IMG/VR virus record: IMGVR_UViG_3300042276_000285
Reading direction: 5' to 3' (one strand)
DNA from: an uncultured virus (IMG/VR IMGVR_UViG_3300042276_000285)
Lineage: Duplodnaviria; Heunggongvirae; Uroviricota; Caudoviricetes
Length of the DNA stretch: 64,000 bases
Shown here: positions 1,953 through 42,108 of the stretch, piece by piece
How the letters are laid out: each line of letters starts with the position of its first letter
How positions within the stretch are numbered: position 1 is the stretch's first letter
Notes under the pieces: generated by a model
The model's database searches: none
The model's input: the letters and a program-made list of their open reading frames with translations, nothing else
Told to the model about the DNA's origin: nothing
Made by a program: the position numbers and the translations under genes

Positions 1953-1962
1953 GCAATAAAAA

Positions 1963-2169
1963 TTACTTGTCATCTCTTTTAGGGCAAGTATATCTAACAT
2001 CGCCTTGCAAGTATTTAATCGCATTCCAAAGGTCATCTAATACTATTGTGCCAAGTGGTAGTAAGTTCCCTTTTCCATCTTTTACGCCAGATAGATAAAT
2101 AGCCAAGTCTTTTAAACTATCAGTTCCTACTATAATTTTTTCTTGCATTGGTTTGTTGTTATCTTCCAT
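1963..2169 (-). CDS. Hypothetical cassette protein (MEDNNKP...)
   Basis: ORF fills body 1946-2194; ATG at 2169. Confidence 0.65.
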   Translation of the reverse strand: MEDNNKPMQEKIIVGTDSLKDLAIYLSGVKDGKGNLLPLGTIVLDDLWNAIKYLQGDVRYTCPKRDDK

Positions 2170-2187
2170 AATCGTAATTTTAAAAGC

Positions 2188-2317
2188 AGGTAACAACGTG
2201 TATAAAAAATAGCTGTTAAGTGCTTTGGTTAATGTTATTTTATTTTTGTTTACTCTTTTACTAATTCAATTTTTAAGTGTGTTAAAACGCTACATTTCAT
2301 ACACAAATACGTTGTGC
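2188..2317 (+). repeat. attC-like site 3 (130 bp)
   Basis: GTGTATAAAAAATAGC / GCTACATTTCATACAC arms, GTT at 2311. Confidence 0.8.
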
Positions 2318-2332
2318 TTCATTAAAACGAAA

Positions 2333-3175: not shown

Positions 3176-3415
3176 GGCATTTGTTTCAATCTTCCAGTAC
3201 ATACTACAATAATCAGGGTAAAGTGGCTTTTCTTTTGCAGAATGTTCACCGCTAAACACCTTCATTTCTGTATGGTCAAGAAAGTCTTTCATAAAATAAT
3301 GTTCACCACTTTCGTAATCTTTTTCAGTCTTGTAAGCACAAAAACGCCACATAACAACAGGTATAGTTAATGCTCGTTCTTCTGCTAAGTCGTAATATTT
3401 TTTCTTTTTACTCAT
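3170..3415 (-). CDS. Hypothetical protein crossing attC5/body junction
   Basis: Starts in attC5 loop, GTT core read as Val, stop at next core. Confidence 0.6.
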   Translation of the reverse strand: MSKKKKYYDLAEERALTIPVVMWRFCAYKTEKDYESGEHYFMKDFLDHTEMKVFSGEHSAKEKPLYPDYCSMYWKIETNAT

Positions 3416-3479
3416 TTCTATTTTTAATTAAAGTGAATACTTCTATGGTCGCACTAATCATACCTGTGGTACGTTAGCA
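3349..3479 (+). repeat. attC-like site 5 (131 bp)
   Basis: ACAGGTATAGTTAATGC / GCACTAATCATACCTGT arms. Confidence 0.8.
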
Positions 3480-3485
3480 GTAATA

Positions 3486-4247
3486 CTACATTCCATCTCC
3501 GAATGAAGTTATCACATTAAATTCTTTTTCTTTTCTTTTTTCTTCCACCCTCTTTTTTGAATTAGTAAAATGTTCTAATTCTTTTTCAATGCCAATGAAA
3601 TTTCTATCAGTATTTATACAAGCAATTCCTGTTGAACAACTCCCCATCGTATTATCTAGTACCAAGTCATTTTCATCAGTATATGTTTTGATAAGATATT
3701 CCAACAAATCAACAGGTTTTTCAGAACTATGTAATCTACTGTAATTATCTACACACTTAAACTCTAAAATGTTTGTTGGAAATCTTGTTGTTTTACCACC
3801 TTCGTAATCTCTTGTATTTGTTCCGTGATATGCTTTTCCATTACTGCAACCTTTTGCACTATTTGTTGGTATGTGTCCATCTGTTATTTGTGGATAGTAT
3901 TTACCTTTTTTGAAAATACATATTTCTTCAATTTTTCTAATTGGCATTCGTTTAGCGTGAAAGAAATTAGTTCCTTGATTTTTCAACCAATACCAACAAT
4001 ATCTAAAATCCTTTTCATTGCTTGAAATTATTTTGGTTGTAAATGGCTGTGAAGCAAATAAAGCAATCGTTCCGTTTTTCTTTATTATTCGGTTGTATTG
4101 TTTCCAAAGTTCAATCATATCAATATGTTCATCCCATTTTGGTGCTGTCATCCCATAAGGTAAATCACAACAAATAAAATCAATACTTTTATCAGGTATC
4201 AATTTCATTTGTTCTATTGTATCTCCGTATCTTAAATCTATTGTCAT
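3486..4247 (-). CDS. DNA methyltransferase, N6-A/N4-C family (paralogue of 21..809)
   Basis: DLPYG, HSSEKP, VLDNTMGS, FIGIEKE. Confidence 0.9.
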   Translation of the reverse strand: MTIDLRYGDTIEQMKLIPDKSIDFICCDLPYGMTAPKWDEHIDMIELWKQYNRIIKKNGTIALFASQPFTTKIISSNEKDFRYCWYWLKNQGTNFFHAKRMPIRKIEEICIFKKGKYYPQITDGHIPTNSAKGCSNGKAYHGTNTRDYEGGKTTRFPTNILEFKCVDNYSRLHSSEKPVDLLEYLIKTYTDENDLVLDNTMGSCSTGIACINTDRNFIGIEKELEHFTNSKKRVEEKRKEKEFNVITSFGDGM

Positions 4248-4338
4248 AATTTTATTTTAATATTTTACCACCACACAAAAAAGAAAAGAAAAAGGTTCTG
4301 TTCTTCGATTGAGTATTTGTGGTTTAAATCCGTACTAC

Positions 4339-4432
4339 TGCTAACAGCGTATATAAGAAATGGCACATAAACATTTGTGCTAAATTTCAAGTTCGTGCAA
4401 GTGCCACTTCTCATATACGCAAACCGTTAGCG
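4339..4432 (+). repeat. attC-like site 6 (94 bp)
   Basis: GCGTATATAAGAAATGGCAC / GTGCCACTTCTCATATACGC arms. Confidence 0.9.
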
Positions 4433-4433
4433 G

Positions 4434-4847
4434 TCAGTTTTTTACCTTTAAATAATAAGCATACAACTCCTCTGTTGTCAAATGACCAACCGTGTGAATA
4501 TACCAACTACCACCCCTGTATCTAAACCAGCTATCAGCTTGCATTTTTTTAGCAATCCAGTCTGCGAACAAAACCGAACCGCTAACATTGTGCAAATGTA
4601 AACCGCTCGCTTCGTTGTTGCGTTCAGCCTCCGCGCGTTCTAAAAAATCATTCTCAAAATATTTTTTAATCTTTTTGCGCTCAGATGTTTTTAATTTAGT
4701 TATTTGTTTTTTGTGATATCCGGCTGTATAGTATTTGCCATTCCTTTTTACAGAATCGACAGTATATTCTAAAATTTTGTCGTTTATAATAATTGTAACA
4801 TCATGTGTAAATGTTTTTACTCTTTCTTTAAAATAAGTTATTTCCAT
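4434..4847 (-). CDS. Hypothetical fusion protein (attC7 loop + body)
   Basis: Junction peptide GLHLHNVSGS. Confidence 0.7.
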   Translation of the reverse strand: MEITYFKERVKTFTHDVTIIINDKILEYTVDSVKRNGKYYTAGYHKKQITKLKTSERKKIKKYFENDFLERAEAERNNEASGLHLHNVSGSVLFADWIAKKMQADSWFRYRGGSWYIHTVGHLTTEELYAYYLKVKN

Positions 4848-4932
4848 CGCGCGTTAATTTATAGTTTCGTAACTCGTATCAATGTTCATCTGTAATTCAA
4901 TAGCGGTCAGCACTTGCACTTTGCCGTTATAG
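4580..4932 (+). repeat. attC-like site 7
   Basis: GTGCAAATGTAAACCGCT / AGCGGTCAGCACTTGCAC arms. Confidence 0.8.
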
Positions 4933-5442
4933 TGCATTGCCCACCCGCTCAAAAACGAATTGCTTCGGAAGTAAATTTGAGCATAGGTAAATACTTTTAA
5001 ATGGTACGCCCTTTAGTTCTATTCCTGTCTTTATATAATCAATTCGTTTATCAAACACCATTATTTCAAATTTGTGGGTACTTAATAGTCCGTACCGCTT
5101 TTTGCTATCAAATAAACCTGCTTCATTAATCAACATTGCAAATGGTTTATTAAGTCCAAACAACCGTTCTAAAATCGGTTCTCGTAGGCTGTATGGTGGG
5201 TTACTTATAATTAGGTCGTAATTTTGTTCAGGTTCATACTCGAAAAAGTCTTTCCCTTCGTCAATATGTGAGTGTATAACATTATGGCTTTCACTCAGTA
5301 GTTTCACAAAATTACTTTCGTTCGTATCAAACGGACACCAAACGGTTGTTTTCGGTGGTAAATATGGTAAAAGCGGTACTATTGCGTAATCTTTAGTATA
5401 GTACTCATCGGCTTTGTTCTGTTTAAATTGGTGATTTGCCAT
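4927..5442 (-). CDS. Small phage adenine DNA methyltransferase
   Basis: DEYYT, VWCPFD, GKDFF, IISNPPYS motifs. Confidence 0.8.
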   Translation of the reverse strand: MANHQFKQNKADEYYTKDYAIVPLLPYLPPKTTVWCPFDTNESNFVKLLSESHNVIHSHIDEGKDFFEYEPEQNYDLIISNPPYSLREPILERLFGLNKPFAMLINEAGLFDSKKRYGLLSTHKFEIMVFDKRIDYIKTGIELKGVPFKSIYLCSNLLPKQFVFERVGNAL

Positions 5443-5456
5443 CGCTCAAAAACGCA

Positions 5457-5586
5457 CTATAACAATTTATATAAGTAATAGCCGTTGTAGTGCAATTATT
5501 AGGGCTTATTACTCTGTTTAACATTTGCAATTATTTCAAAGTTCGTGTTTCAAATCGGCTACTACTCATATAAGTATCCGTTATAA
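5457..5586 (+). repeat. attC-like site 8 (130 bp)
   Basis: TTATATAAGTAATAGCCG / CGGCTACTACTCATATAA arms. Confidence 0.85.
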
Positions 5587-5592
5587 AACATT

Positions 5593-5727
5593 TTAAGACA
5601 CATCATATGTCGAAAAATATTCACCATCTATATAAACTATTGCTTCATTTTCACGGTACTTTATTTTAATGTTTGAGCCGTAATTTAACTTTTCTCTGAG
5701 TAATTTAAGTAAGTCTTCTAAATACAT
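5593..5727 (-). CDS. Small hypothetical cassette protein (44 aa, MYLEDLLK...)
   Basis: Translated by hand; fills body 5580-5746. Confidence 0.55.
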   Translation of the reverse strand: MYLEDLLKLLREKLNYGSNIKIKYRENEAIVYIDGEYFSTYDVS

Positions 5728-5739
5728 AATAAAAACGTT

Positions 5740-5835
5740 TTATAACAAAAGCTATAAACAAAAAGCCTCTGTTTGGTTTGTACTTTTAATTATATTTTAT
5801 GGTTCGGCTTTCAGTTCATAGCCAAGCCGTTAGCG
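5740..5835 (+). repeat. attC-like site 9 (96 bp)
   Basis: GCTATAAACAAAAAGCC / GGCTTTCAGTTCATAGC arms. Confidence 0.85.
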
Positions 5836-6123
5836 TTCAGTTTGCCGATTATTGCAAATTTTCCAAATTGTTCCGTTCAGACATTTTCCATTGTATTGGT
5901 CTAAGCATGGTCTGTAATGGCAAACCGCATCGCTAACATGCGGTTTATTGCAGTTGCTCAGCTCGTCCGAACTTTTTGCCAACGCGCGGGGAAGCCATTC
6001 AAAACTTATAACCGAATCAACTCTTTTTTGTCCCTGTTTTTCGTACCAGTCAAATAGCTGGTCTTCCTCGGTTTGCGTTTCTGGTGTAATATGTGGCACA
6101 TTATCTGTAAATTGTATTTTCAT
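5830..6123 (-). CDS. Hypothetical fusion protein with Cys-rich C-terminus
   Basis: Junction peptide NCNKPHVSDA. Confidence 0.65.
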   Translation of the reverse strand: MKIQFTDNVPHITPETQTEEDQLFDWYEKQGQKRVDSVISFEWLPRALAKSSDELSNCNKPHVSDAVCHYRPCLDQYNGKCLNGTIWKICNNRQTER

Positions 6124-6212
6124 CCTACGCTCGTATTTTTATGGTTATTTACTCGTATCAACTTATTCGGTTATTGTAGCGGCAACCGACAACAAACCGC
6201 CAGCCGTTAGCA
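5931..6212 (+). repeat. attC-like site 10
   Basis: GCGGTTTATTGCAGTTGC / GCAACCGACAACAAACCGC arms. Confidence 0.8.
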
Positions 6213-6345
6213 ATAATAAAAACTAACAGTATCAATATGTACCGCCTATTTTGTCACTGCCGCAATTTGCACAGCTTGTAAAATTAAAATGTTCTATATT
6301 ATATGGATTCCATTTGTATCCACATTCCATACATTTACAATAGTC

Positions 6346-6519
6346 TTATTTAAAATCGTTTTTACTATTGCTAACATTATGCAAATTTAAATTTTTAATT
6401 TTCCATTCTGCATATTCGTTCATTGCGTTCAATATCGTGGCTTCCTTGCCTATATCTTCCAAACAAGGTTCCCAACTTCTCCAAATTTCAAGCATTTTTA
6501 AAGTGTCGTTTTTACTCAT
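6346..6519 (-). CDS. Small fusion ORF (57 aa) followed in frame by a stop-separated Zn-ribbon module
   Basis: MSKNDTLKM...NLNLHNVSNSKNDFK* then DYCKCMECG...CANCGSD to TGA at 6232. Confidence 0.5.
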   Translation of the reverse strand: MSKNDTLKMLEIWRSWEPCLEDIGKEATILNAMNEYAEWKIKNLNLHNVSNSKNDFK

Positions 6520-6569
6520 AATATTTCAATTTAAAATTAAAAATCAAAACTTGCACTTGTCCGTTAGCA
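6369..6569 (+). repeat. attC-like site 11
   Basis: TGCAAATTTAAATTTTTAATT / AATTAAAAATCAAAACTTGCA arms. Confidence 0.75.
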
Positions 6570-6578
6570 ATCAGTTTG

Positions 6579-6971
6579 CTAACCATCTATTCCACATTTA
6601 ATACACTTTAATGCAAATGGTATGTCAGATTCTTCGTTTGTTGTCCACTCGTGTTCGCAAACCGCCGTTTCGTCATTTATTTGCGCTTCGTGCTTAACGC
6701 CACATTCGCACTCATAAATAACTTTTGTAATCGGGGCTAATTTGTTGCATAAAGGGCAAATAAATTCCTTCACTTTGCTAACACCATGCAAAGGTAATGC
6801 TGCGCTCTCGTCCAAACTGTTTCCCGATGCTCGTTCTAATTCAAGAATATAATTAGCCAAATATTCTCTTTCATTAATCGTTAGAATATCAGCTTTTGTT
6901 TTGCCAATTAAAGCACTCACAATCATTTTTCGTTCCAATCCAAGTTTATTCAATTTGTTAATGTAATCCAT
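6579..6971 (-). CDS. Hypothetical fusion protein with Zn-ribbon C-terminus
   Basis: Junction peptide DESAALPLHGVS; CxxC pairs. Confidence 0.7.
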   Translation of the reverse strand: MDYINKLNKLGLERKMIVSALIGKTKADILTINEREYLANYILELERASGNSLDESAALPLHGVSKVKEFICPLCNKLAPITKVIYECECGVKHEAQINDETAVCEHEWTTNEESDIPFALKCIKCGIDG

Positions 6972-7057
6972 CGCTCGTATTATTTAATCGTTATTTACTC
7001 GTATCTACTTTCGTGCAGCTTTCAGGGCAGCACATACCCTTGCATTTACCGTTAGCA
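6776..7057 (+). repeat. attC-like site 12 (same shell as 35599-35965)
   Basis: ATGCAAAGGTAATGCTGC / GCAGCACATACCCTTGCAT arms. Confidence 0.9.
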
Positions 7058-7063
7058 GTAATG

Positions 7064-7306
7064 CTATTTGTGCTTATCATAAAATTCAATTAAATGATAT
7101 ATGCACTTCGCATCTCCCGTACTGCTAAACATATACTTTTGCCTCAAATATTCAACCATTTCATCAAGACTTAATGTGTTCCAATCAAACATAGGTGAAG
7201 CACTACTGCTAACACCATGTAAAAAACATTGCTCGGCAAGTTTCTTAGCATCTGGCTTTGGTTCACCTATTATAATCACTTTTGGCTTTTTGTCTTTATC
7301 TTTCAT
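7064..7306 (-). CDS. Hypothetical fusion protein
   Basis: Junction peptide CFLHGVSSSA. Confidence 0.65.
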   Translation of the reverse strand: MKDKDKKPKVIIIGEPKPDAKKLAEQCFLHGVSSSASPMFDWNTLSLDEMVEYLRQKYMFSSTGDAKCIYHLIEFYDKHK

Positions 7307-7339
7307 ATCGCAACGATTTTTTACATTTCAACGTTGTAT
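7207..7339 (+). repeat. attC-like site 13 (133 bp)
   Basis: ATGTAAAAAACATTGC / GCAACGATTTTTTACAT arms. Confidence 0.8.
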
Positions 7340-7491
7340 TTCACGGTAAGACCGAGAGGTTCAGAATCTACTTTAAAAATTCTTGTTTTAAAGTAGTGAA
7401 CCGAAGGGATTACGCGACGGTAGGAGCGAGTGAAATACAACGGCTTCGTGTAAACTTGAAATATGTGACCACTTTAACCGGAGCGAGCGCA

Positions 7492-7768
7492 ACACAACAA
7501 AAGTGTAAACGTAATTTCAAACGCGAGCTTAATTTCATTTCAAGTTCCTGTATTGCTCCCAGCCTTTAAAATTGAAATCTCTTTATTCATTCGCTCAATG
7601 CGTACATCGTATTTTTTAACATCGGTCATATAACCTAAATTTTCGTGTACTTTTCTCAATTCAAGTAACCTATCTCTATAAATTTCAAATGTCTTTAATA
7701 TGTCCATGATATTTCAATTTTAAATTCTTTCTCAATCCAGAAACTACGTTTACACGAAGCCGTTAGGC
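7492..7768 (+). repeat. attC-like site 14
   Basis: GTGTAAACGTAATTTC / GAAACTACGTTTACAC arms. Confidence 0.75.
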
Positions 7769-8053
7769 TTCATTTACCTCCGCACTCATAAATAATTCCC
7801 ATGCCTTTTGGTAGTTCTTATGCCACATTTTTTGTAACTCAATATCTTTATCACTCCAATTGTGTTTAGGCTGTAATTCGGCATAAGAATCATCATCCCA
7901 ACCCATTACAACGCCATACATAAAAGCTATCATCTTATCTTCGCTGCAATCTCTGGAGGTAAATGCGAATGTTTCGTGCAACCTTTGTAATGGGTTTGTT
8001 GGCGTTTCCATCTCATCTCTTGTTTGCCATTTTAATTCTGTATTATCTTTCAT
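7763..8053 (-). CDS. Hypothetical cassette protein (MKDNTELK...)
   Basis: ORF between CCWCCGCAC direct repeats; stop in core. Confidence 0.7.
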   Translation of the reverse strand: MKDNTELKWQTRDEMETPTNPLQRLHETFAFTSRDCSEDKMIAFMYGVVMGWDDDSYAELQPKHNWSDKDIELQKMWHKNYQKAWELFMSAEVNEA

Positions 8054-8086
8054 AATATTGTTTTTATCCCACCGCACAAAACGAAA

Positions 8087-8216
8087 GCCTAACAATGTAT
8101 AAAAATAATAGGCGGTTACGTGCGTGTAGGTAGTTTATAATCATTTAATTAATTGTATTCTGTTTGCGAAGTTCAGCGTTTCAAATCGCCTACTATTCTT
8201 ATACTCACCGTTACCG
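8087..8216 (+). repeat. attC-like site 15 (130 bp, related to site 8)
   Basis: GTATAAAAATAATAGGCG / CGCCTACTATTCTTATAC arms. Confidence 0.85.
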
Positions 8217-8286
8217 TGCATGCTAAATTTTAATTTAGTGCCGTGCTTAATCAGAAAGTGTTTAACCTTTAAGAAAAAGCACGACA

Positions 8287-8635
8287 CGGTAACAATGTGT
8301 AACTACAAAATGCTCGTAGCTCGTAAAACCATTTAGCCATCACACAACTCTGTTACCAGTAAGTCTTATCTTACCATCATCTTTTGGCTGTGTTTCCATT
8401 ACAATAAATTCACTTCCGTCTGAATTGTGTCTGTGCAATATTACAATTGCATCTAATTCAACTTTCCCATAAACAGAATCACCATAGTCTATGGTAACTT
8501 TTCTTGTTTTTGTTTTTCTTGTAGGCATATTTATTTATTTAGTTGCCCTCCGCGCTGTACTTTGGGCTGTTAATTCTCGTATCAAAGTCGCTGCAAATTT
8601 GAAGCAGCATTCAGTAGTTACACCAACCGTTAACG
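8287..8635 (+). repeat. attC-like site 16
   Basis: GTGTAACTACAAAATGCT / AGCATTCAGTAGTTACAC arms. Confidence 0.85.
8340..8528 (-). CDS. Small hypothetical protein in attC16 loop
   Basis: 62-aa ORF flanked by CCATCACAC / CCTCCGCGC. Confidence 0.6.
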   Translation of the reverse strand: MPTRKTKTRKVTIDYGDSVYGKVELDAIVILHRHNSDGSEFIVMETQPKDDGKIRLTGNRVV

Positions 8636-8977
8636 CACATGCTGAGAATCGTATTCATCAGCAGCTTTGCGTAATTCGTTATATTCTATAACAGGTACAG
8701 TAAACTTTTTGAAACGGTGTGCAATCTTTGAACCATCTACATATTCAGCAAGGTTTCCGCAGCTTTCAACAAAAGCACGTGCGTTAACACAAGCTAAATG
8801 CAAACCGCCTTCGGTATCTGAATCGGGCTTGCCAACGCTCGCAATAAATTTGGCTGTTAACTCTTTATTTCTGTAAAGAAATTCAGTTATAACTTGTGAG
8901 TTAGTCGTGTCATTGTTAACCTTCCAATCGGTTTTTTTATCAATGAAGGTTAGTAGTTCATTTAAAAATTTTTCCAT
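8630..8977 (-). CDS. Hypothetical fusion protein
   Basis: Junction peptide GGLHLACVNARA. Confidence 0.7.
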   Translation of the reverse strand: MEKFLNELLTFIDKKTDWKVNNDTTNSQVITEFLYRNKELTAKFIASVGKPDSDTEGGLHLACVNARAFVESCGNLAEYVDGSKIAHRFKKFTVPVIEYNELRKAADEYDSQHVR

Positions 8978-9061
8978 CGCTTCGGTATTTTAAAGTTATT
9001 TGTTATCTGATAATTCATCGGTTATTCAAAAGGCGGTCAGCACTTAGCTAAACCGTTAGCA
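8782..9061 (+). repeat. attC-like site 17 (family of site 7)
   Basis: AGCTAAATGCAAACCGCCTT / AAGGCGGTCAGCACTTAGCT arms. Confidence 0.85.
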
Positions 9062-9113
9062 ACAATGCCTTTAAATAATTGCCAACACTCAAAAGCCTTA
9101 CACAAGGCACAGT

Positions 9114-9537
9114 TGCTAACACGTTGTATAAAACATGCTTGCGGTAGTGCCTCGTGCTAGCTTCGGTGCTTAATTGGAGCAAAATAATAATGCCCCACGC
9201 ACAACAACTACTTTTTAATTTCAGGCCAACTCCACTCGCGCTCTCCTGTACCCAAAACAGCAGAAGTTACCCAAAGGTTTTCTTCTCCATCAAGTAGTAC
9301 TTTAAGGTTTACGCACTCGTCACCCCACACAGCAGTAATAACCGCAGGTGCATCTTCTTGGTAATTGTTCATCTTGTCCTTTTGCTCTTCATCACAATGA
9401 TAAATCACAATTCTACCTATTGTTGGTGTCATAACTAAATATGGGTTTTACAAAGCCCGCCCAGGGCATTATTATTTTTTCTCTCGTGTGAAGGTCAGTG
9501 CAAATTTGCCGTACTTGCCATATTGCCACCGTTAGCT
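9114..9537 (+). repeat. attC-like site 18 with non-matching (hybrid) outer arms
   Basis: Both boxes present; inner IR AAAATAATAATGCC / GGCATTATTATTTT; outer arms do not pair. Confidence 0.6.
9208..9432 (-). CDS. Small phage protein (MTPTIGRIVIY...WSWP)
   Basis: PTIGRIV / PAVIT / VNLKV / W-WP pattern typical of a common small phage protein. Confidence 0.75.
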   Translation of the reverse strand: MTPTIGRIVIYHCDEEQKDKMNNYQEDAPAVITAVWGDECVNLKVLLDGEENLWVTSAVLGTGEREWSWPEIKK

Positions 9538-10288
9538 ACAAAGCCAACAACTGTTCGTACTTTTTTAAACATTTACGGCAAATTAAGCGTGTGTCTATTT
9601 TTGTCGGTTGCTTATCCAACGCACGAAATGGAATATTGCCGTCAGGGTGTGTATATTTTGAATCATCTTTTGTTTTATCATAGGTTGGTAAGCCAGAAAG
9701 CGATAATGTATTATAGCCACCATTTTTTACTGAATATCCTGTCGTTTTATGATCTGGTTCGCAAAGAACTTTTCCATCAACGGCAATATGACGTTTTTTA
9801 GTAGCCCAACACAAAGCAACCTTGCGTTCTGCGTTTGGCTCAGTAGCTAACACATTACATAGGTCATTTGCTTTGCTATTCGGATGTTTGGTACTTTTAT
9901 TCATCGTATCTGTTTTTTGAAGTTTTGTAAATTTATTCAGGGGCAAACGCCCCATGTAATCGGCACGGTACCATTCATTCGCCCCACCGCACATCGTAAT
10001 ATCATTGTAACCACCAATTCCAACAACTTTTGCATCATCCCAATTACTTATCCCGTATTTAAACTCTCGCATTTCTGTGTAGGGTTTTCCTTTAAATCTA
10101 ACATCGGGCTTTGGCATCTTATCAAACATGAAGAAACCATCACAGCAATGCAACTGTTTTTCGCTGTAATAAAATACGTGCGTAGCCCTATTCTTTCTAA
10201 ATGGGTTACTCATAAACGCCCAACACTGCAACGAAATGGTAACAATGTGTAGGCGTAATGCCTTCGTTTTTTTAATTAAAGTTTTCAT
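9536..10288 (-). CDS. Read-through fusion of two cassettes
   Basis: Spans attC20, body 20, attC19 and body 19; core mutation at 9968 removes the internal TAA. Confidence 0.55.
   Translation of the reverse strand: MKTLIKKTKALRLHIVTISLQCWAFMSNPFRKNRATHVFYYSEKQLHCCDGFFMFDKMPKPDVRFKGKPYTEMREFKYGISNWDDAKVVGIGGYNDITMCGGANEWYRADYMGRLPLNKFTKLQKTDTMNKSTKHPNSKANDLCNVLATEPNAERKVALCWATKKRHIAVDGKVLCEPDHKTTGYSVKNGGYNTLSLSGLPTYDKTKDDSKYTHPDGNIPFRALDKQPTKIDTRLICRKCLKKYEQLLAL
9845..9973 (+). repeat. attC-like site 19 with mutated core (GGT)
   Basis: ATTACATAGGTCATTTGC / GCAAACGCCCCATGTAAT arms; GGTACCATT where GTTACCATT is expected. Confidence 0.8.
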
Positions 10289-10354
10289 ATACTTTTAGTT
10301 TTTAAGTTTTAAAACGAGTCAGTGGTGGCACTCCGCCTACACCAACCGTTATAG
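10237..10354 (+). repeat. attC-like site 20 (118 bp)
   Basis: GTGTAGGCGTAATGCC / GGCACTCCGCCTACAC arms. Confidence 0.85.
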
Positions 10355-10372
10355 TGCATTTCCATCCGCACT

Positions 10373-10537
10373 CTAAATCTGTTTATAAAATTCAATTTCT
10401 TTTCTTGTCATAGGTACTACTTGGTAACCATAACCTTGTTCTGCTTTCCAGTTAAAACATTCTTCGTATGTACCTGCATATACCTCATTACCCTCATCTT
10501 CATGGTAAACTAAATCAATTACTTTATGTGTTTTCAT
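10373..10537 (-). CDS. Small hypothetical cassette protein (MKTHKVID...)
   Basis: ORF in body 10348-10578. Confidence 0.6.
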   Translation of the reverse strand: MKTHKVIDLVYHEDEGNEVYAGTYEECFNWKAEQGYGYQVVPMTRKEIEFYKQI

Positions 10538-10630
10538 TTTATAATTTGTTATGCCTACCCGCAAAAACGCACTATAACAAGCGGTCATAAAAAATTGCGG
10601 GGTTAGCGGTTAACATTTAAACTTCTACAC

Positions 10631-35097: not shown

Positions 35098-35125
35098 TTT
35101 TGTAGGTTTCTTCTCGTGTTGTATC

Positions 35126-35157
35126 GGGGGTGGCTGTTGAGTCGCCCCCTTTTTTTA
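35126..35157 (+). terminator. Rho-independent terminator upstream of array 2 promoter
   Basis: GGGGGTGGCT-gttg-AGTCGCCCCC followed by a T run. Confidence 0.75.
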
Positions 35158-35259
35158 TTCACAAATACTTGCATCGATGCGACTTATTTTCTATCTTTGC
35201 TAACGTTTCCGCCATGAGTAGTGGCGGTTTTAGAACTACTCACTTTAAATAACAAAATA

Positions 35260-35592
35260 ATGAGCGAATTTGAAAACGGATATTATTGGGTAAGTTATAA
35301 AGGTATGAAACCTGTAATTATGGAAAAAGATAATTATGGATGGAATGCTATGGGTATAGAAACCGAACCAGATTTAACAGATTATAAAGTATTAGGAAAG
35401 GTAAGCGAATGGGATTTGAGCGTACCACAAGCAAATGAATTATCACCGCATGTTAGCGGTAGTGCTTTTCCTAAGTACGATTGCGATGATTGTAAACACT
35501 ACCCCTGCCAAACAGAACCAGATAGCCACGGAAGCCGACAAAGAAAAATAGAATACGGTAAATGCGGAGACCATAGCGAAAGATGTGATTAG
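35260..35592 (+). CDS. Hypothetical fusion protein, Cys-rich C-terminus
   Basis: Junction peptide NELSPHVSGSA. Confidence 0.65.
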   Translation: MSEFENGYYWVSYKGMKPVIMEKDNYGWNAMGIETEPDLTDYKVLGKVSEWDLSVPQANELSPHVSGSAFPKYDCDDCKHYPCQTEPDSHGSRQRKIEYGKCGDHSERCD

Positions 35593-35598
35593 CATTAC

Positions 35599-35965
35599 CG
35601 CTAACGGTAAATGCAAGGGTATGTGCTGCCATGAAAGTTGCACAGACAATGATACGAGTAAACGACAAAACAAATAAAAGCGATGGAAAAAATAACTTAT
35701 TACACAAACAGCGGTGAATTTATAGCTGACAAATTACTGCCATGTCCTTTTTGTGGGGGTGAGCCTGAATTTATAACAATCGGAAACTACCACACAAAGA
35801 GTAGAAAAGCACAAATTGAATGTACCAAATGCCATGTAAGGCGAACAACTGGCACAATTAGAAATGACCTTGAATGGTGTGGACGTAAAGCAATTGAGGC
35901 TTGGAACGCGCGTTGGCAAGACAGTTCGGACGAGAGCGCAGCATTACCTTTGCATGATGTTAGCG
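35599..35965 (-). repeat. attC-like site sharing its shell with 6776-7057
   Basis: GCTAACGGTAAATGCAAGGGTATGTGCTGCC and GGACGAGAGCGCAGCATTACCTTTGCATG identical to the reverse complement of site 12. Confidence 0.9.
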
Positions 35966-36120
35966 CGTCGTTGCTTAAAAAATACATGACTTTGATAATT
36001 GATTGTGAAGGAGTGGACTTCCTTTATAAAATAGATACAATGCAAGATACACAGGAATGGACAGACGAAGAGGTTGAAGCTTTAACTGAACTTTCAGAAT
36101 CAATTAGCAATGCGCGCTAA
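35683..36120 (+). CDS. Lar-like (restriction alleviation) Zn-binding domain fused to a cassette body
   Basis: LLPCPFCGGE ... IECTKC ... AIEAWN. Confidence 0.7.
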   Translation: MEKITYYTNSGEFIADKLLPCPFCGGEPEFITIGNYHTKSRKAQIECTKCHVRRTTGTIRNDLEWCGRKAIEAWNARWQDSSDESAALPLHDVSASLLKKYMTLIIDCEGVDFLYKIDTMQDTQEWTDEEVEALTELSESISNAR

Positions 36121-36233
36121 CGGTTTGTACAAGTTGCGTTTTAAAACTGACGATTATTTGAAATACTAAAGTAATATTTTTAAAAGCGAAGCGGGGGCGT
36201 TTTCTCCTGCATAAATTTAATACATACAGCAAA

Positions 36234-36929
36234 ATGAAAAATTTAAAAGAAATGACAGAACAAGAAATTCTTGCGTTAACAGATGAAGAAATTACGCTTA
36301 GAATTAAGCTGAAAAAGGCAGAAGAAGGAATTAAATTAGTTCCAAAACCCAAAATGCCTTCCTATTTTGATATTGAAGAACCTGACAAAACAGTTTATTA
36401 TTGCGAGTTATTCGGTGATGATTTGTGTTTTGAAAGCATGGAAGAACTTACTAAATTGATTCAATTGATTTCTGGTAGCGAAACAAAATGTTCGGTTACC
36501 TATGACTACAATAAAGCCGGGTCTGAATATTCTTATATCACGTCAAAAATGAAAACACGTGGTTACAGCTATAAAGAATGGAGTGTGACTGGTTCGAAAC
36601 GTGTTTATTCAATCGAAAAATACAATGCTTGTGTTGATATGATTGCTCAGAACAAAAAAATGAAAGAGCAATATGAAAAAGAATTAAAAGAATATGAAGC
36701 TGCTATTTCGGAAGCCAAATGGATTGAAGATGAAATAAACGACCGTGTTCGCGAAGTTCGTGACAAATATTGGAAACTAAATGAATATTGCCGTAAATTT
36801 AAACTTGATTATTTGCCACTTGCAGACGAAAATGAAGACGTGGCAATGAAGTTTATGGATAAAGCATATTCGTTAACTGACGAACAAAAGGAATACGTTC
36901 TATCAAATTATGCAGGATTAAATTCCTAA
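36234..36929 (+). CDS. Hypothetical protein inside attC loop
   Basis: 231-aa ORF. Confidence 0.8.
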   Translation: MKNLKEMTEQEILALTDEEITLRIKLKKAEEGIKLVPKPKMPSYFDIEEPDKTVYYCELFGDDLCFESMEELTKLIQLISGSETKCSVTYDYNKAGSEYSYITSKMKTRGYSYKEWSVTGSKRVYSIEKYNACVDMIAQNKKMKEQYEKELKEYEAAISEAKWIEDEINDRVREVRDKYWKLNEYCRKFKLDYLPLADENEDVAMKFMDKAYSLTDEQKEYVLSNYAGLNS

Positions 36930-37168
36930 ACAGCTTTGCTGTATGCGGGAGGGGCTTTTAAAAATATGGTTAATTAAGCTCCACCGTTGATTAGATGCAC
37001 GGCAAAAATGCAATTTGTACTTTGTTATAAACTGTAGCCGTGCTTCTTCTAATCTTTTTAAACATACAGTTTTCACGGCTATTGTTTATAACGGTTGGTG
37101 TTTGTTTAGTTTGCCAACCGGATTGCAGAGAATTTTAATTGAAATACTAAAATATCAAATTACGCGCG

Positions 37169-37444
37169 ATGGAAGATTACGAACAAGATTATGACGAATG
37201 TTGCCCGAAGTGCGAACATTCACCGACACACTACCGCAATTGCAGCGAATTGCACTGCGATGAAGGTTATATAGATGAAAATGACCTTGACCCGATAGAT
37301 TTCATGGAAGGTGAAAGTTACATTATGTGCAATGAGTGTTACGGCACTGGTATTGAAGAATGGTGTCCAAAATGTGGTTACGATATTAGCGCACATAAGT
37401 ACGTTGTGCGGCTGCGAGAAGCTAAATTGAAAAGCGCAAATTAA
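37169..37444 (+). CDS. Cys-rich zinc-finger protein inside attC loop
   Basis: CPKC, CNECYGTG, CPKCG. Confidence 0.7.
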   Translation: MEDYEQDYDECCPKCEHSPTHYRNCSELHCDEGYIDENDLDPIDFMEGESYIMCNECYGTGIEEWCPKCGYDISAHKYVVRLREAKLKSAN

Positions 37445-37671
37445 ATAAACACATTGTTACCATGCCGAAGGGTACGTTTTGCGCTTACGTACCTTTCGGA
37501 TTGCTTCAAATTTTCAAGCGCAAAATGCATGGTAACGGGAACTTGTATGAAGCGGTGGCGATTAGGAGCTACTACCTATCGAACCGCACAAAATTAACTT
37601 AGTAGCTAAGTGGTTAAAAATAAGCACATAACGCCACTGATTTATACAAAATGTTATGCTGCGTTTTTGTT

Positions 37672-37947
37672 ATGATTTACAAATTAACTTTTGATGACGG
37701 CAGAATTGATTGGTGTACCGCCAAAAACCAATTACACCTATTAAAATCTTACGATAAAGATTATGATTTGCCATTGCAGGAAATTGAAAATATCGAAGAA
37801 ATAGAGGAAGAACAAGCCAAAACAATAATGGTTACAAATACTGAATTTGACGAAGATAACCCAGATGATATGCCGGAACAATTATCAATTTGGGAATTGG
37901 CAGTTGGAGAAGATTTTGAAATAATCGCTTCTACGGAGTTCGTTTAA
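37672..37947 (+). CDS. Acidic hypothetical cassette protein
   Basis: Fills body 37653-37959. Confidence 0.7.
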   Translation: MIYKLTFDDGRIDWCTAKNQLHLLKSYDKDYDLPLQEIENIEEIEEEQAKTIMVTNTEFDEDNPDDMPEQLSIWELAVGEDFEIIASTEFV

Positions 37948-38073
37948 ATGCAGCATAACGGTCGAGTGTATGAGTAGTGTGGCTTTGCACATACTTTCTT
38001 TCGACTTACAGATAAACTTATTTAGCCACATTACTTATACACTTTGTTATAGGTATGTAAAAATTTATGGATT

Positions 38074-38247
38074 ATGAAAGATAAAGAAATTAAAGACTTA
38101 CAAAAGTTTAGGGCAAAGGAAGAGTTGAAGATAAAACTACTTCAAGTTATTAACAAATATAAATCAAAGGAAGAACCACATATAATGTTATCAAATGATG
38201 ATATTGTAAATGTTTTATCTTCAATGATAGTTAGAAGAACGGAATAA
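38074..38247 (+). CDS. Small hypothetical cassette protein (57 aa, MKDKEIKD...)
   Basis: Translated by hand; fills body 38046-38265. Confidence 0.55.
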   Translation: MKDKEIKDLQKFRAKEELKIKLLQVINKYKSKEEPHIMLSNDDIVNVLSSMIVRRTE

Positions 38248-38342
38248 ATTTTTATTACCTATAACGGAAAGCATAAGTTTTGACCGCAGTTGAATAACCG
38301 AAAAAATCTAATACGAGTATAAACAGTTTAAAATTACGTGTG

Positions 38343-38684
38343 ATGGGAAAAGAATTACATATTATAAGACCAAAAGGAACAACTATTGGAGAATATGAAG
38401 TAACAAAAATTGGATTTTTGATGCCGAATGGAGAGGAAGTTATCATTCCTTTTAATAAAGGCACGAAGATAAAAGACATACTGAGCGAAGGCAATCCGTT
38501 GCTCGAAGTTGGTAGCGGTTTAAATTTATGCTGTGTTAGCAGCCGTTTATCCTTAGATGAAATAGAAAAAGAATCAAAAGAGTGGGCTGAAAGTAGGAGT
38601 GTTGGCAACAAAGAGCAGGACGATGAATGTGCTTATGACTTTAAATGTGGAATGATAACCGCAAGAAATAAACTTAGCAAATAA
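38343..38684 (+). CDS. Hypothetical fusion protein
   Basis: Junction peptide GLNLCCVSSR. Confidence 0.65.
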   Translation: MGKELHIIRPKGTTIGEYEVTKIGFLMPNGEEVIIPFNKGTKIKDILSEGNPLLEVGSGLNLCCVSSRLSLDEIEKESKEWAESRSVGNKEQDDECAYDFKCGMITARNKLSK

Positions 38685-38735
38685 AATGGCTGCTAACGGT
38701 AACTTGTAAGTTGTCGGTTTTTATTAACGGATTAA

Positions 38736-39119
38736 ATGAACGAAATTATGGAAAAAGTATTTAGAGTTGCAGACATTAGAAAATTTGAGCAACAAGTTAC
38801 AAAAGGAGATATAAGCTATTCAAGAATGGTTGAATTAATGAACGAAATGGCGCATACGCACTATGTAGTTAATAAAAACTGCAATTTACAAAATGTTAAC
38901 CGCCGTTATTCCCCAGAAGAAGGAAAAGTACGAGGCGGATCAACAATTAAATGGGAAACTTTTACGGACGAATCATATCACAATATGGTTGCTGTTAGAC
39001 CAGTTGGAGACACCGACTTTAATTCACCGAGGTTATTTCATTTCATATTCCCAGAAAATGCCGAAAAATTTAAACTACTTGCTGAAATGGCTTTTGTTGC
39101 TAAGCCTAATGGCGGTTAA
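38736..39119 (+). CDS. Hypothetical fusion protein
   Basis: Junction peptide NCNLQNVNRR; stop in core. Confidence 0.65.
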   Translation: MNEIMEKVFRVADIRKFEQQVTKGDISYSRMVELMNEMAHTHYVVNKNCNLQNVNRRYSPEEGKVRGGSTIKWETFTDESYHNMVAVRPVGDTDFNSPRLFHFIFPENAEKFKLLAEMAFVAKPNGG

Positions 39120-39204
39120 CGGTAAGCATAAGAATAGTGGCGACAATAACGCACGAAAGTTAATAAAAGAGATACAGTAATATTTTATTTTTAGGGATGG
39201 TTTT

Positions 39205-39867
39205 ATGTTTTATTATTACGGAAGAAAAAAACAAATAGCCAAGTATTATCCTGCTCCAAACTGCGATACTATTATTGAGCCGTTTGCAGGTGCAGCATCT
39301 TACTCAATGTTTGGCGACAATTGGGAAAAGAATATAATTCTCATCGAAAAGGATGAGAAAGTTGCCAATATTTGGGATTGGCTTATTAATAGCGCAACTG
39401 TCGAGGATATTAAGAATTTACCTGACTTAAAAGTTGGTGAAAGAAGTTCTGATTTTTTACATATTGTACATGCTGCAACAAAAATGGCTTTCCACTACAA
39501 AACGATTAAGGTAACACCTGTACTGGAACGAAATTGGGAAATCAGCCGCAGAATATTTGCTGAAAACCTTCACAAAATAAAACATTGGCAGATTATTAAT
39601 GACGATTATTCAAGTGCGCCAAATATTGAAGCTACTTGGTTTATCGACCCCCCGTACAAAGGCAATGCAGGAATGGGGTACAGGCATAGCAGTAGATTGT
39701 TGGACTATGATAAACTCGCCGATTGGACATTGAAACGCAAAGGCGAAATTATTTTTTGTGAGGGTAAAAACGGTGATTATTTACCATTTAAACCCTTATT
39801 AAATTTGAAAGGTGTGGCTGGGAAAGTAAGTAAAGAAGTTATTTTTTACAAATCCAAATTGCTTTGA
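39205..39867 (+). CDS. Dam/D12-like DNA adenine methyltransferase
   Basis: YYGRK, IEPFAGAA, FIDPPY. Confidence 0.85.
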   Translation: MFYYYGRKKQIAKYYPAPNCDTIIEPFAGAASYSMFGDNWEKNIILIEKDEKVANIWDWLINSATVEDIKNLPDLKVGERSSDFLHIVHAATKMAFHYKTIKVTPVLERNWEISRRIFAENLHKIKHWQIINDDYSSAPNIEATWFIDPPYKGNAGMGYRHSSRLLDYDKLADWTLKRKGEIIFCEGKNGDYLPFKPLLNLKGVAGKVSKEVIFYKSKLL

Positions 39868-40117
39868 AAAAGCAAAAGTGCGAGGGCAAAATAAAATATG
39901 GAATTAGCGCAGAATGTTGATTAAATGTACCACACCAAGCCATTATTTTTATGCATTGTTATGCACCGTGCTTTTTGTAACTTTGAAACACGGACGTAAC
40001 AACAAAGATGCATTTATGAATAATAGCATGGTGCATAACGGTTGCAACAAGTGGCGTTGCTGCCAGACAGTTGATTAAATGAACGGACGTTAAAAAAATA
40101 ATTTTAGGGAGGGTTTT

Positions 40118-40834
40118 ATGATTAATTTTTTCTTTGGTAACTACAAAATATTTACGCGCAATATCCCTGATTTATATTACGATTGGACTATTGCCGATAT
40201 TCCCTACGGAATTGACGTTGCAAATATGGCTTATCTGAAAGAAGTTAATACAACAGTTAAACAGAAAAATGGAAATAGACTTAATCCAAACCGAAACAAA
40301 AAAGCATATAAACAAAAGGATTGGGACAAACAAACACCTTCTCAAGATTACTTTGACGAGATTAGGCGCATAAGTAAGAATCAGATTGTTTTCGGTGTTA
40401 ACTATGTTGATTGGAAAGGACTTGGAAAAGGCAGAATTAAATGGGATAAAGGTGTTCCTGATGGTGTTAGTTTTAACCGTTATGAATATGCCTATTGTAG
40501 TTCGATTGATTATGAACACGAAATACAACTTCTTTGGGCTGGAATGTGCCAAGCTAAAAGCCTGAGCGAACCAATGACACAGCAAGGCAATAAGAAACTC
40601 AATGAAAAACGTATTCATCCATGCCACAAGCCTATTTTGCTTTATAAAAGACTATTGCTTGATTTCGTGGAACCTGGGATGAAAATAATTGACACGCATG
40701 GAGGAGGAATGAGTTTAGCAATTGCTGCAGATGAATTTGGCGCAGATGCAGATATATGTGAGATTGACGGTGAATACTTTAATTCTGGAACTAACAGATA
40801 TAAATTGCACAAACGCCAACTCAAACTGTTTTGA
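40118..40834 (+). CDS. DNA methyltransferase, N6-A/N4-C family
   Basis: ADIPYGI, RIHPCHKP, IIDTHGGG, CEIDGEYF. Confidence 0.85.
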   Translation: MINFFFGNYKIFTRNIPDLYYDWTIADIPYGIDVANMAYLKEVNTTVKQKNGNRLNPNRNKKAYKQKDWDKQTPSQDYFDEIRRISKNQIVFGVNYVDWKGLGKGRIKWDKGVPDGVSFNRYEYAYCSSIDYEHEIQLLWAGMCQAKSLSEPMTQQGNKKLNEKRIHPCHKPILLYKRLLLDFVEPGMKIIDTHGGGMSLAIAADEFGADADICEIDGEYFNSGTNRYKLHKRQLKLF

Positions 40835-41137
40835 AAAAACAGTACGTGGGTCGGCAAATTATTTTTTGATTTTATGCAGAAACTTAGCTATGAAATACCG
40901 AAGCAATGCCATTTGTTGCGTGTTAGCGTGCCAACGGGAACGGTTTTGCTAAACTGGTTTTCATGTTTGCTTATAAGTTTCAAGCAAAACTGCACGCTAA
41001 CGGCTATTGTAAGAATAGTAGCCGTAAAATACGCAGAAAAGTTGATTGAAATACAATAGTTTAATAACCGATAATAGCTCTAAAAAGACCACATAGCAGG
41101 CTATTATTTTTACAAATTGTTATGTGGCGTTATTATT

Positions 41138-41302
41138 ATGGACAAATGGGAAATATACGGAACTTTCAATAACTGGAAGAATCGAAACTATCACGAGCTT
41201 AGAAAAGAGTACGAAGGTGGGAAAAATTGCGGGGATTCAATGAGAAGTACTGACGATTGTAGTTTTGATGATTTTTGTATGGGTAAGTGGCAGCGACTTT
41301 AA
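41138..41302 (+). CDS. Small hypothetical cassette protein
   Basis: Fills body 41119-41313. Confidence 0.55.
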   Translation: MDKWEIYGTFNNWKNRNYHELRKEYEGGKNCGDSMRSTDDCSFDDFCMGKWQRL

Positions 41303-41482
41303 TGCCACATAACGGTTCGTATATGAAAAGTAGCGGACTACGAAGCGCAAAACTATCAAACTATGAGAAACGATAATACGAGTACGAACCTTGCAAACGG
41401 CACTAAAACCGCTATTTTTTATATATGGTGTTATGTGTAGTGCTTTATTAATCAGATTGTTAAACTTTAAAAATTAAATAAA

Positions 41483-41959
41483 ATGGGATTAGATGTAAGA
41501 ACTTACGGAAATATTAAACTTGCTGAAAACGAAGATGATTACGCATTTACAGCATTTGTAATAGATGATAATTGGAAGCATAAAATTAAAAACTTAGAAG
41601 ATGGTAAATGTTATACTGGTGATAGCATTTTCAGAGGTGTTTCTTATCCTTATTCAGCACATAGCAGATTTAGAGAAATGTTGGTAAAATTAATTGATAG
41701 AACTGATTTACTTGAAGCTGATGGAAAAATAAAATGGAGCGAACTGCCTTCTGATATTCCATTTAATGCGTTAATTGACTTTGCAGATAACGAAGGTTGT
41801 TTGGACTGGGAAATTTCAGAAACTATCTATTCTGACTTTAAAAAATACAATGAAAAGGCAAAAGCTGAATTAGATGAATACAATTATTCAAGATACGAAA
41901 CTTGGATGAAAACATTTGAAGCAGCTAAAAATAATCAAGGCGTGGTGGTGTTTTCTTAA
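41483..41959 (+). CDS. Phage hypothetical protein (MGLD... family)
   Basis: MGLDV start, PFNALIDFADNEG. Confidence 0.8.
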   Translation: MGLDVRTYGNIKLAENEDDYAFTAFVIDDNWKHKIKNLEDGKCYTGDSIFRGVSYPYSAHSRFREMLVKLIDRTDLLEADGKIKWSELPSDIPFNALIDFADNEGCLDWEISETIYSDFKKYNEKAKAELDEYNYSRYETWMKTFEAAKNNQGVVVFS

Positions 41960-41965
41960 CATTAC

Positions 41966-42003
41966 ACATAACTATTATTAAAACCAATTAGTTTAACCAA
42001 TTA
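41966..42003 (-). other. attI-like proximal site of array 2
   Basis: 41969-41991 is the exact reverse complement of 1-23; internal direct repeat AACCAATTA at 41982 and 41995. Confidence 0.7.
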
Positions 42004-42108
42004 ATTTTCAATCAGATAAAAATGGATTTGACAGAACTGAAACAAAACTATGTCACTGTTTTGACTGCGCATATCCATTTTTGTATCTTTGTAGAAAAAT
42101 AAATAAAC

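Follow-up and report, generated by a model that had tools for sequence, protein, structure and literature searches.

The question raised by this locus is how a run of twelve small genes, each closed off by the same short motif, came to stand in the middle of the virion genes of a phage, and whether the run is inert cargo or part of a working exchange system. The DNA analysed, hereafter the window, is a stretch of 64,000 nucleotides from an uncultured virus of the Caudoviricetes (IMG/VR record IMGVR_UViG_3300042276_000285), and an earlier note on it had described the run as a second cassette array inserted in the virion block; that observation is real. The second array, here called array 2, is very probably the second cassette platform of a phage-encoded, integron-like system of site-specific recombination, the other platform being array 1 near the left end of the window. 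Judged from the sequence, the system appears to be active, to have two platforms and to resemble integrons without being a classical integron, its catalysis being attributed to a putative phage enzyme. The evidence consists of a cassette grammar with covarying stems, a duplicated attI-like site, an intact recombinase gene beside array 1, and the gain, loss and exchange of whole units at the triplet AAC.

Array 2 extends over 35201-41972 on the plus strand and comprises 13 joints of the form N6-TAAC(GG) that delimit 12 bodies of 306-971 nt, each with one plus-strand open reading frame (ORF), none of the 12 ORFs crossing a TAAC joint. Array 1 (20..10610, minus strand) shows the same grammar over 17 cassettes, with at least three N6/N4 methyltransferases, and the twelve inverted bodies claimed for the second array are borne out, provided that the degenerate ends are counted among the joints. 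The span proposed for it, 35198..41991, stands as to the place of the array, but its right end lies 19 nt inside the attI-like flank. The hexamer TAACGG is found 45 times in the window against 25.1 expected, a number reached by none of 100 shuffles, and its matches cluster in two blocks on opposite strands: 868-10351 (-), where 16 minus-strand copies make up array 1, and 35602-41315 (+), where 11 plus-strand copies are array-2 joints and an extra plus-strand match at 38725 lies inside a stem. The two end joints deviate from the hexamer, the left boundary (35201..35206, +) being a degenerate CTAACGT and the right one a bare TAAC at 41969-41972.

The left boundary follows immediately upon an exact TATCTTTG at 35192..35199 (+), a putative promoter motif that stands at the attI-distal end of the array and reads into the cassettes. 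Before it, an intrinsic-terminator-like hairpin at 35126..35149 (+; a 10-pair stem with 7 GC pairs, then a T run) closes the head-gene unit 34054-35097, and both the terminator and the promoter motif are thus present where they had been reported. Exact TATCTTTG also occurs just 5' of the virion genes at 21645, 23020, 28484, 30919 and 42084, the last copy (42084..42091, +) preceding the next virion gene, 42109-42846. The looser motif TAnnTTTG shows no window-wide enrichment (84 found, 82.8 expected), and a sigma-70 promoter scan remained at background level (35 found, 29.4 expected). The array is also more AT-rich than its flanks, as had been noticed, with a GC content of 0.353 compared to 0.425 in 28000-35100 and 0.412 in 42100-49100.

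On the ORF-sense strand, each cassette reads in the order TAA|C-GG, y, loop, y', t-GTTA, x, loop, x', TAA|C. TAAC and GTTA are invariant in 12/12 sites and only 4-6 nt are invariant across cassettes, while the stems are private to each. In the R stem, the N6 that follows GTTA pairs with the N6' that precedes TAAC of the same cassette at 71 of 72 positions, compared to 40.9% in non-partner combinations, although the 12 cassettes carry 12 different N6 sequences; the pairing often reaches 10-14 bp, and a G.T recurs at position 7. As an internal negative control, the N6 of the upstream neighbour set against that of the next cassette is paired at 40.3%, the chance level. The L stem is a duplex of 17-25 bp formed by the stretch that follows TAACGG and the one that precedes the GTTA of the cassette, and in 11 of the 12 array-2 cassettes this own duplex is better than those formed with all 24 foreign partners (mean of -14.1 vs -6.7 kcal/mol). 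Covariation was evaluated by pair counts over an alignment of 12 compact sites, long variable loops being present elsewhere, together with scripted counts. Of the 20 L-stem pairs in this alignment, 16 show changes on both sides, and 88% of the cells are paired; the covariation score of the stem is 0.44, compared to 0.15 after shuffling (0/500 shuffles reach it) and at most 0.16 when the arms are slid.

The same stems display a pronounced strand asymmetry. Two L-stem G.T pairs are near-invariant (10/12 and 12/12 sites), all 39 L-stem G.T pairs place their G on the 5' arm, and folding favours the sense strand in 23 of 24 cassettes, as in all four folded example sites. The ORF itself is found in the x loop in four of the 12 cassettes, in the y loop in four, and running through y'-GTTA-x in the remaining four. 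In a circular form, y'-GTTA-x and x'-TAAC-GG-y make up one continuous imperfect duplex with two loops, and the gene can lie in either of them. The features of attC sites, namely inverted repeats, AAC...GTT, R and L boxes and a structure kept while the sequence varies, are accordingly present, with longer stems and with conserved G.T pairs. The possibility that the joint mimics a dif site was dropped, the two GCATAA-like motifs being, by eye, direct and not inverted.

At its right end, array 2 runs into an attI-like site (41970..42021, +) that begins (T)AAC|TATTATT..., contains two AACCAATTA direct repeats and is identical to the end site of array 1. It is followed at 42022..42064 (+) by the first 43 nt (14 codons) of a recombinase gene, after which the sequence diverges. 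The array-1 site (1..22, -) is cut by the window edge and is an exact 22-mer of the array-2 site, the recombinase gene lying just past position 1. The circle is completed by G003, a near-identical record with the loci L002 and L005, in which L005 1588-2044 corresponds to window 63544-64000 and L005 17441 to window 20. In this record, the 98 bp of window 41967-42064 recur, inverted and at 100% identity, at L005 16891-16988, where 43 nt of the block open a 271-aa ORF (16118-16933, -) and the other 55 nt lie upstream of it. Array 2 therefore ends in a second attI-like copy plus a 14-codon recombinase stump and, having no recombinase gene of its own apart from this 43-nt remnant, must depend on the gene beside array 1. 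In this respect, the claim that two independent arrays mean an active multi-locus system holds for the activity and the two loci, which differing alleles and cassette exchange support, but not for full independence of array 2.

The 271-aa protein is a tyrosine recombinase (PF00589, 70 bits) with a SAM-like N-terminal domain, and the catalytic residues R134, K159, H218, R221, H243 and Y252 do not vary among 18 homologues. Of the NCBIfam models, that of archaeal XerA matches the protein best, and the fold of its AlphaFold model (pLDDT, the predicted local distance difference test, 84.7) is closest to XerA (5hxy, E 6e-12; also 4a8e) and then to VchIntIA (2a3v, E 7e-10). The signature of integron integrases (IntI), which have a specific insertion in the catalytic domain, is lacking: TIGR02249 yields 67.1 bits against a cut-off of 265 and aligns over model positions 15-177 of 315 only, the integron-integrase model NF011946 yields 29 bits against a cut-off of 435, and phmmer aligns only residues 59-171 to IntI4. 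The protein is also shorter than 2a3v (320 aa), and only about 8 residues separate strands 152-155 and 164-167 in the model.

Homologues of this recombinase were found in 40 viral loci. In the 38 other viral loci, the cassette motifs accumulate upstream of the gene, TAACGG on the recombinase strand reaching 0.68/kb upstream vs 0.09/kb downstream and GTTA-N6...N6'-TAAC pairs 0.97/kb vs 0.14/kb. Of 35 viral and bacterial loci inspected, about 30 have the motif TAAC|TAnnATAT upstream of the recombinase gene, at a distance of 35-55 nt from its start codon; it is absent in L050, L062, L066 and L069 and lies farther upstream in L061. The longer 37-nt attI pattern had no match in the metagenome contigs searched and, in viral contigs, matched only the two known ones, twice each. 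Homologues are also encoded at nine Bacteroidota genome loci, and upstream of some of them stand cassettes that follow the same grammar. Contig C110 of the metagenome-assembled genome (MAG) G012 (L071, 1440-2880) has at least three such cassettes, including a copy of the cassette-5 ORF at 78% DNA identity in which the cassette N6 is different but still complementary. The genes upstream on that contig look phage-like, and it may be a prophage or a binned phage.

Turnover of whole cassettes is seen between the window and other phage records. In genome G002, the locus L001 is 99.6% identical to window 24054-37538 and 99.0% to 41962-46018; it keeps cassettes 1-4, whereas cassettes 5-12 are replaced, as far as attI, by six others whose cargo includes a methyltransferase and a radical SAM gene, with breakpoints at the TAACGG of cassette 4 (identity stops at 37538) and at the terminal (T/C)AAC. 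L001 13783-14043 is the array-1 cassette 5835-5576 of the window at 99.2% identity, and both arrays therefore draw on one pool. In array 1 of the same genome (L006), window 7048-11486 is in common and the sequence differs from there to attI, the breakpoint being the joint 7049-7054; the attI-proximal cassette carries the tail of window cassette 10. In the record G003, whose sequence matches the window at 100% on either side, one extra 458-nt cassette stands between the array-1 attI and cassette 21-873. Its junctions read ...AATAATAG|TTA... and ...CCG|TTA..., and the insertion lies exactly at attI G|TTA. This cassette (L005 16986-17444) has a 119-aa ORF (phrog_12889) and is internal in array 1 of G002 (L006 13167-13625). 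The arrangement in G003 is what one attI x cassette integration would be expected to yield, or what one excision would start from.

L024 likewise has cassette 9, bounded by two joints and 99.68% identical over 937 nt (39108-40044), with a recombinase of only 66% and an attI of 78% identity. A Logan contig of run X9 joins 35598 to 36115 and skips 516 nt, exactly cassette 2, with 10 nt common at the joint, and X9 also has an array-1 cassette tail beside an attI copy. In this run, the depth over window 33500-43500 is about 32 for the backbone, about 8-15 for array-2 cassettes and nil for some of them (cassettes 9 and 12), a pattern which, contig depths being coarse, fits mixed array alleles in the sample. 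X6 and X7 contain junctions of the L001 type, and the loose end at 37538 in X6 goes on as in L001. Among about 11 cassette-level breakpoints, all fall at TAAC joints and none at an internal GTTA. The bases that flank AAC travel with different neighbours (TAAC vs CAAC; TAACG-G, TAACG-T, TAAC-T), so that, at the resolution of sequence comparison, exchange is confined to the AAC triplet. Taken together, near-identical phages that differ by whole cassettes cut at the joints look like a working, virus-owned gene exchange.

The spot that array 2 occupies is variable in other phages as well. The earlier note had proposed to look for empty or differently filled alleles between the genes 34054-35097 and 42109-42846, and such alleles exist, in L001 with its six other cassettes and in a more distant pair formed by L008 and the near-identical L009. 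At this place, an additional module of about 890 nt is present in L008 (7850-8780), whereas L009 is empty (11075-11110). The module begins with TATCTTTG and CATAACG, contains one methyltransferase-like ORF, 40% identical to the window cassette 4927-5442, and ends in TATAAC|TATTATA. The spot behind the head-gene terminator is therefore a landing place used repeatedly, and the motifs at both boundaries of the module are those of array 2. The recombinase was found in neither the L008 nor the L009 record.

The alternative that stands up best, improbable as we consider it, is homologous or illegitimate recombination at conserved intergenic repeats, with a tyrosine recombinase serving some other purpose, such as lysogeny or dimer resolution, and with stems of regulatory function. 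Such a mechanism has been proposed for the mobile regulatory PeSL cassettes of T4-type phages, which reportedly act by homologous recombination of a long conserved motif common to all cassettes and without a dedicated recombinase. PeSLs are the nearest phage-specific concept, the array cassettes likewise being small accessory genes that differ between close relatives. The genes of PeSL cassettes lie in hyperplastic regions of lytic phages, have promoter and stem-loop motifs on their sides and vary between close relatives (PMC2839356, PMC4122927). This alternative is favoured by site families conserved at 79-97% between cassettes and phages, which give homology for exchange, by ORF swaps inside one conserved frame with breaks at the ORF ends, and by the usual task of Xer-type enzymes, the resolution of dimers. 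However, exchange takes place in a 4-nt core next to a cassette-specific upstream flank, with 4-10 nt common at the joints, and homologous recombination has no need of the covariation seen in the private N6 and L stems. Arrays upstream of the recombinase and on its strand in 38 other loci, and one cassette inserted precisely at a site 51 nt before the recombinase start, also speak against it. Compared to PeSLs, the core is only 4-6 nt, the stems are cassette-specific and covarying, and a recombinase and an attI accompany the arrays.

The likeness of the arrays to integrons, especially sedentary chromosomal ones, is extensive: head-to-tail cassettes of one gene, sites defined by structure with only AAC/GTT kept, R- and L-type stems, matching cassette-specific ends, an attI beside a tyrosine recombinase gene, attI-proximal turnover and exchange at AAC/GTT. 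There are also differences. The phage enzyme is a 271-aa protein of Xer type, of which TIGR02249 covers only the first half; the phage ORFs lie on the equivalent of the bottom strand, 12/12 of them pointing toward attI and the recombinase; instead of a Pc promoter at attI or intI, which in classical integrons drives promoterless cassettes oriented away from attI, the only candidate is TATCTTTG at the attI-distal end (35192); the phage stems are longer; the ORF lies in either loop or through the internal GTTA; and the carrier is a phage with two attI copies. The likeness to the Xer/dif system resides in the fold and size of the recombinase (5hxy, 4a8e, the XerA NCBIfam model), but about 30 structured sites in two arrays that bound mobile genes contrast with one duplex dif per replicon, without cargo.

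It could be argued, in view of this attC-like grammar (AAC...GTT, R and L stems, variable sequence in a conserved structure), that the phage passively carries a host-derived fragment of a classical integron, that is, an integrase-less cluster of two or more attC-type sites (CALIN), whose movement depends on the IntI of the host. Array 2 does have the layout of a CALIN, with 12 sites and a 43-nt recombinase remnant, its sites being 'attC' by grammar and not by the standard model. Qi et al. (2023, PMC9892861) describe integrase-less clusters of attC type from virulent phages, one of them a Polaribacter phage that carries two cassettes for DNA methyltransferases; the sites were called by classical attC models, and one such site recombined with IntI1. 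We still find this explanation very unlikely. The two arrays share an identical attI-like site, one copy lying beside a phage-borne recombinase that is not an IntI, cassettes turn over among near-identical phage genomes, and the ORFs are inverted compared to integron cassettes. The passages of PMC9892861 considered here report neither a phage-borne non-IntI recombinase nor allele comparisons, both of which are present here, and the words crAss, Bacteroid- and Flavobacteri- do not occur in that paper.

A host origin would also predict the block, intact and with bacterial flanks, in a chromosome, as the earlier note had pointed out. A search through 401 sampled genomes from the family to which G012 belongs (a MAG labelled Salinimicrobium) and through five recombinase-bearing Bacteroidota genomes, 406 in all, did not find the whole array-2 block; the only matches were of cassette size, at 70-78% identity, in 3/401 and 3/5 of these genomes. 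Since the 401 genomes are a sample of the family, with only the two best candidates per genome scored, the block is to be described as not found in those searched, and not as proven absent. Finally, the view that the stems act only on RNA, in processing, stability or termination within a long transcript, with incidental cassette polymorphism, agrees with the location of all G.T (G.U) wobbles on the transcribed-sense strand and with stems that bracket ORFs, but it is scarcely credible given that a Rfam scan of 34900-42300 returned nothing relevant (a chance-level U6atac match, best E 0.47), that the stems lie inside coding sequence in 4/12 cassettes, that the DNA breakpoints coincide with the joints and that the arrays are associated with a DNA recombinase.

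If array 2 is, as we favour, the second platform of an integron-like phage system, the recombinase would act in trans on this platform as well as on array 1. It would excise cassettes as circles and insert them at either attI by strand exchange within AAC, at a point that would correspond to the integron AA|C / G|TT. By analogy with integrons, the substrates would be folded single strands, an idea prompted by the private stems and the one-strand G.T bias, which have no role in duplex recombination. The reactive strand would probably be the folded ORF-sense strand, which carries all the G.T wobbles and presents x'-TAA|C...GTTA-x, like the integron bottom strand. In integrons, the attC strand is marked by extrahelical bases, and the conserved G.T wobbles may take over this role here. 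Within an array, the folded form could be a neighbour-hybrid hairpin (the 4-bp TAAC/GTTA plus the L stem), or the own R hairpin of a cassette stacked on the next L hairpin. Entry would occur beside attI, the promoter-distal end, since the variable blocks abut attI in both arrays compared between the window and G002 and in the comparison with G003. Transcription from the far-end TATCTTTG toward attI would be the mirror image of a classical integron, so that new cassettes would join the 3' end of the transcription unit.

Several points weigh against this reading. All the comparisons are between metagenome assemblies, several of which may go back to a single campaign of sampling, and repeats can give rise to chimeric contigs, yet the overlap of 4-10 nt at the joints is far below the word length of assemblers. 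The link between the recombinase and the sites is by association in sequence, and the attI-proximal place of the variable blocks is seen in two arrays and one genome pair. A joint 40997->41969 in X6 and X7, considered as an array-2 allele without cassettes 11-12, was rejected; it matches the array-1 junction of L006 and, because the two attI copies are identical, probably comes from a G002-type array 1. Cassette 1 has no L-stem pair (its true partner ranks 9/24), loops of 200-900 nt in 8/12 cassettes would slow single-strand folding, and the G.T bias would equally favour the folding of mRNA. The frame of cassette 10 (about 80 nt at the 5' side and about 180 nt at the 3' side, with the site halves and the ribosome-binding region) recurs in L024 2757-3431 and L006 10633-11335. 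This shared frame holds unrelated ORFs, namely a 238-aa methyltransferase, two small ORFs and a 151-aa ORF, and breaks at the ORF ends, so that a second process also reshuffles cargo. Besides, five relatives at a greater distance, whose homologues of the 34054-35097 protein are 35-57% identical, have neither arrays in the gap between the flanking homologues nor the recombinase; two of the five are at least 90% complete.

That gap, between the homologues of 34054-35097 and 42109-42846, holds in these five relatives two conserved structural genes (229 and 214 aa), which in the window lie at 23042-24344, upstream of the terminase. This is a translocation of two virion genes that is tied in position to array 2, which stands where the relatives have those genes. 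A search of metagenome contigs with the 42109-42846 protein yielded no relative, and a megablast of 33500-43500 against 50,697 phage records gave a single match of 58 nt.

A broader proposal, possible in our eyes but with the balance leaning against it, is that a lytic crAss-like phage has a complete counterpart of the integron, in which a single minimal Xer-type recombinase serves two insertion platforms in trans, with sites that fold and are used without the IntI-specific domain, a strand choice made by G.T wobbles and not by extrahelical bases, and a second platform that was copied from attI plus 14 codons of the recombinase gene into the virion operon. One counter-defence bank would then be read with the replication genes of the left arm and another from a virion-type promoter, and the phage would offer a living example of a transition from Xer to IntI and of gene capture owned by a virus. 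By the current view, integron recombination depends on an IntI-specific domain and is confined to bacteria; here, the logic of integrons (folded sites, attI, cassette capture) is met in a phage of virulent type, with a plain Xer-like enzyme and mirror-inverted genes. This bears on how a minimal tyrosine recombinase recognises folded DNA, on the possible origin of integrons from Xer systems, and on the trade of phages in anti-restriction genes such as those for methyltransferases and Lar. In addition, array 2 indicates that a platform can multiply within one genome by the copying of about 100 bp. No description of such a system in crAss-like or other Bacteroidota phages was found in the literature searched, which is not proof of its absence, and standard integron finders, being keyed on IntI and on classical attC models, would probably miss it. 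The present contributions are the pair of genomes that differ by one cassette at attI, the second attI with a recombinase stump in the virion block, and the traffic between platforms.

As to the cassettes of array 2, all on the plus strand, the first (35201..35605) has an ORF at 35260-35592 without family match, which spans the internal GTTA (35452), and an R stem with a score of 10/10. Cassette 2 (35602..36121) encodes a Lar-like restriction alleviation protein (35683-36120; PF14354, E 1.7e-10; phrog_599), its stop codon lying in the TAAC joint. In cassette 3 (36118..37092), the ORF 36234-36929, of no assigned function like those of cassettes 4, 5, 7, 8 and 12, lies inside the L-stem loop and is followed by a compact R hairpin (37024-37094; -13.8 kcal/mol, z -4.0). 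Cassette 4 (37089..37538), the last in common with L001, has a Cys-rich ORF (37169-37444), and cassette 5 (37533..37959) a compact L hairpin 5' of the ORF 37672-37947. The ORF of cassette 6 (37956..38265) encodes 57 aa (38074-38247), with an L hairpin of -14.9 kcal/mol on the plus strand vs -11.0 on the minus strand. Cassette 7 (38262..38697) has an ORF (38343-38684) that spans the GTTA at 38535, and cassette 8 (38694..39120) one (38736-39119) whose stop codon is in the TAAC joint. Two DNA methyltransferases follow, a D12-class N6-adenine enzyme in cassette 9 (39117..40039; ORF 39205-39867; PF02086, phrog_56) and a 238-aa N6/N4 enzyme in cassette 10 (40036..41001; ORF 40118-40834; PF01555, phrog_23224, E 6e-35). 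Cassette 11 (40998..41313) has an ORF of 54 aa (41138-41302), and the terminal TAAC of cassette 12 (41310..41972; ORF 41483-41959) abuts attI. The orphan DNA methyltransferases and Lar found here, together with the radical SAM and PAPS-reductase genes that relatives carry, suggest that the cargo is a bank of counter-defence genes.

The phage itself is crAss-like, with a genome of about 79 kb that the window mostly covers, the largest contig in the protein cluster of the 34054-35097 gene being 79,480 nt long. The placement of array 2 between capsid-region and tail genes agrees with the virion genes on both sides, all on the plus strand: TerL (26136-28454), the portal (28510-30888) and a major structural protein (32064-33491) upstream, and a 1194-aa structural/muzzle protein (42843-46427), with a weak match to the crAss muzzle C-terminus, downstream. 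The left arm, on the minus strand, encodes a DnaG-type primase and many small genes. A further TATCTTTG at 24438 (24438-24760) is followed by CAACGT, two GTTA motifs and a 65-aa ORF, faintly like the left boundary of array 2, and may be a relic or due to chance; a third mini-array at this place is not supported, as paired stems were not found on inspection. Outside the arrays, the window also encodes a 226-aa protein with a C-terminal Cpn10 (GroES-like) domain (18702-19382, -), a DUF3127 protein (19753-20163, -) and an 850-aa late protein that ends in a C1q domain (58614-61166, +).

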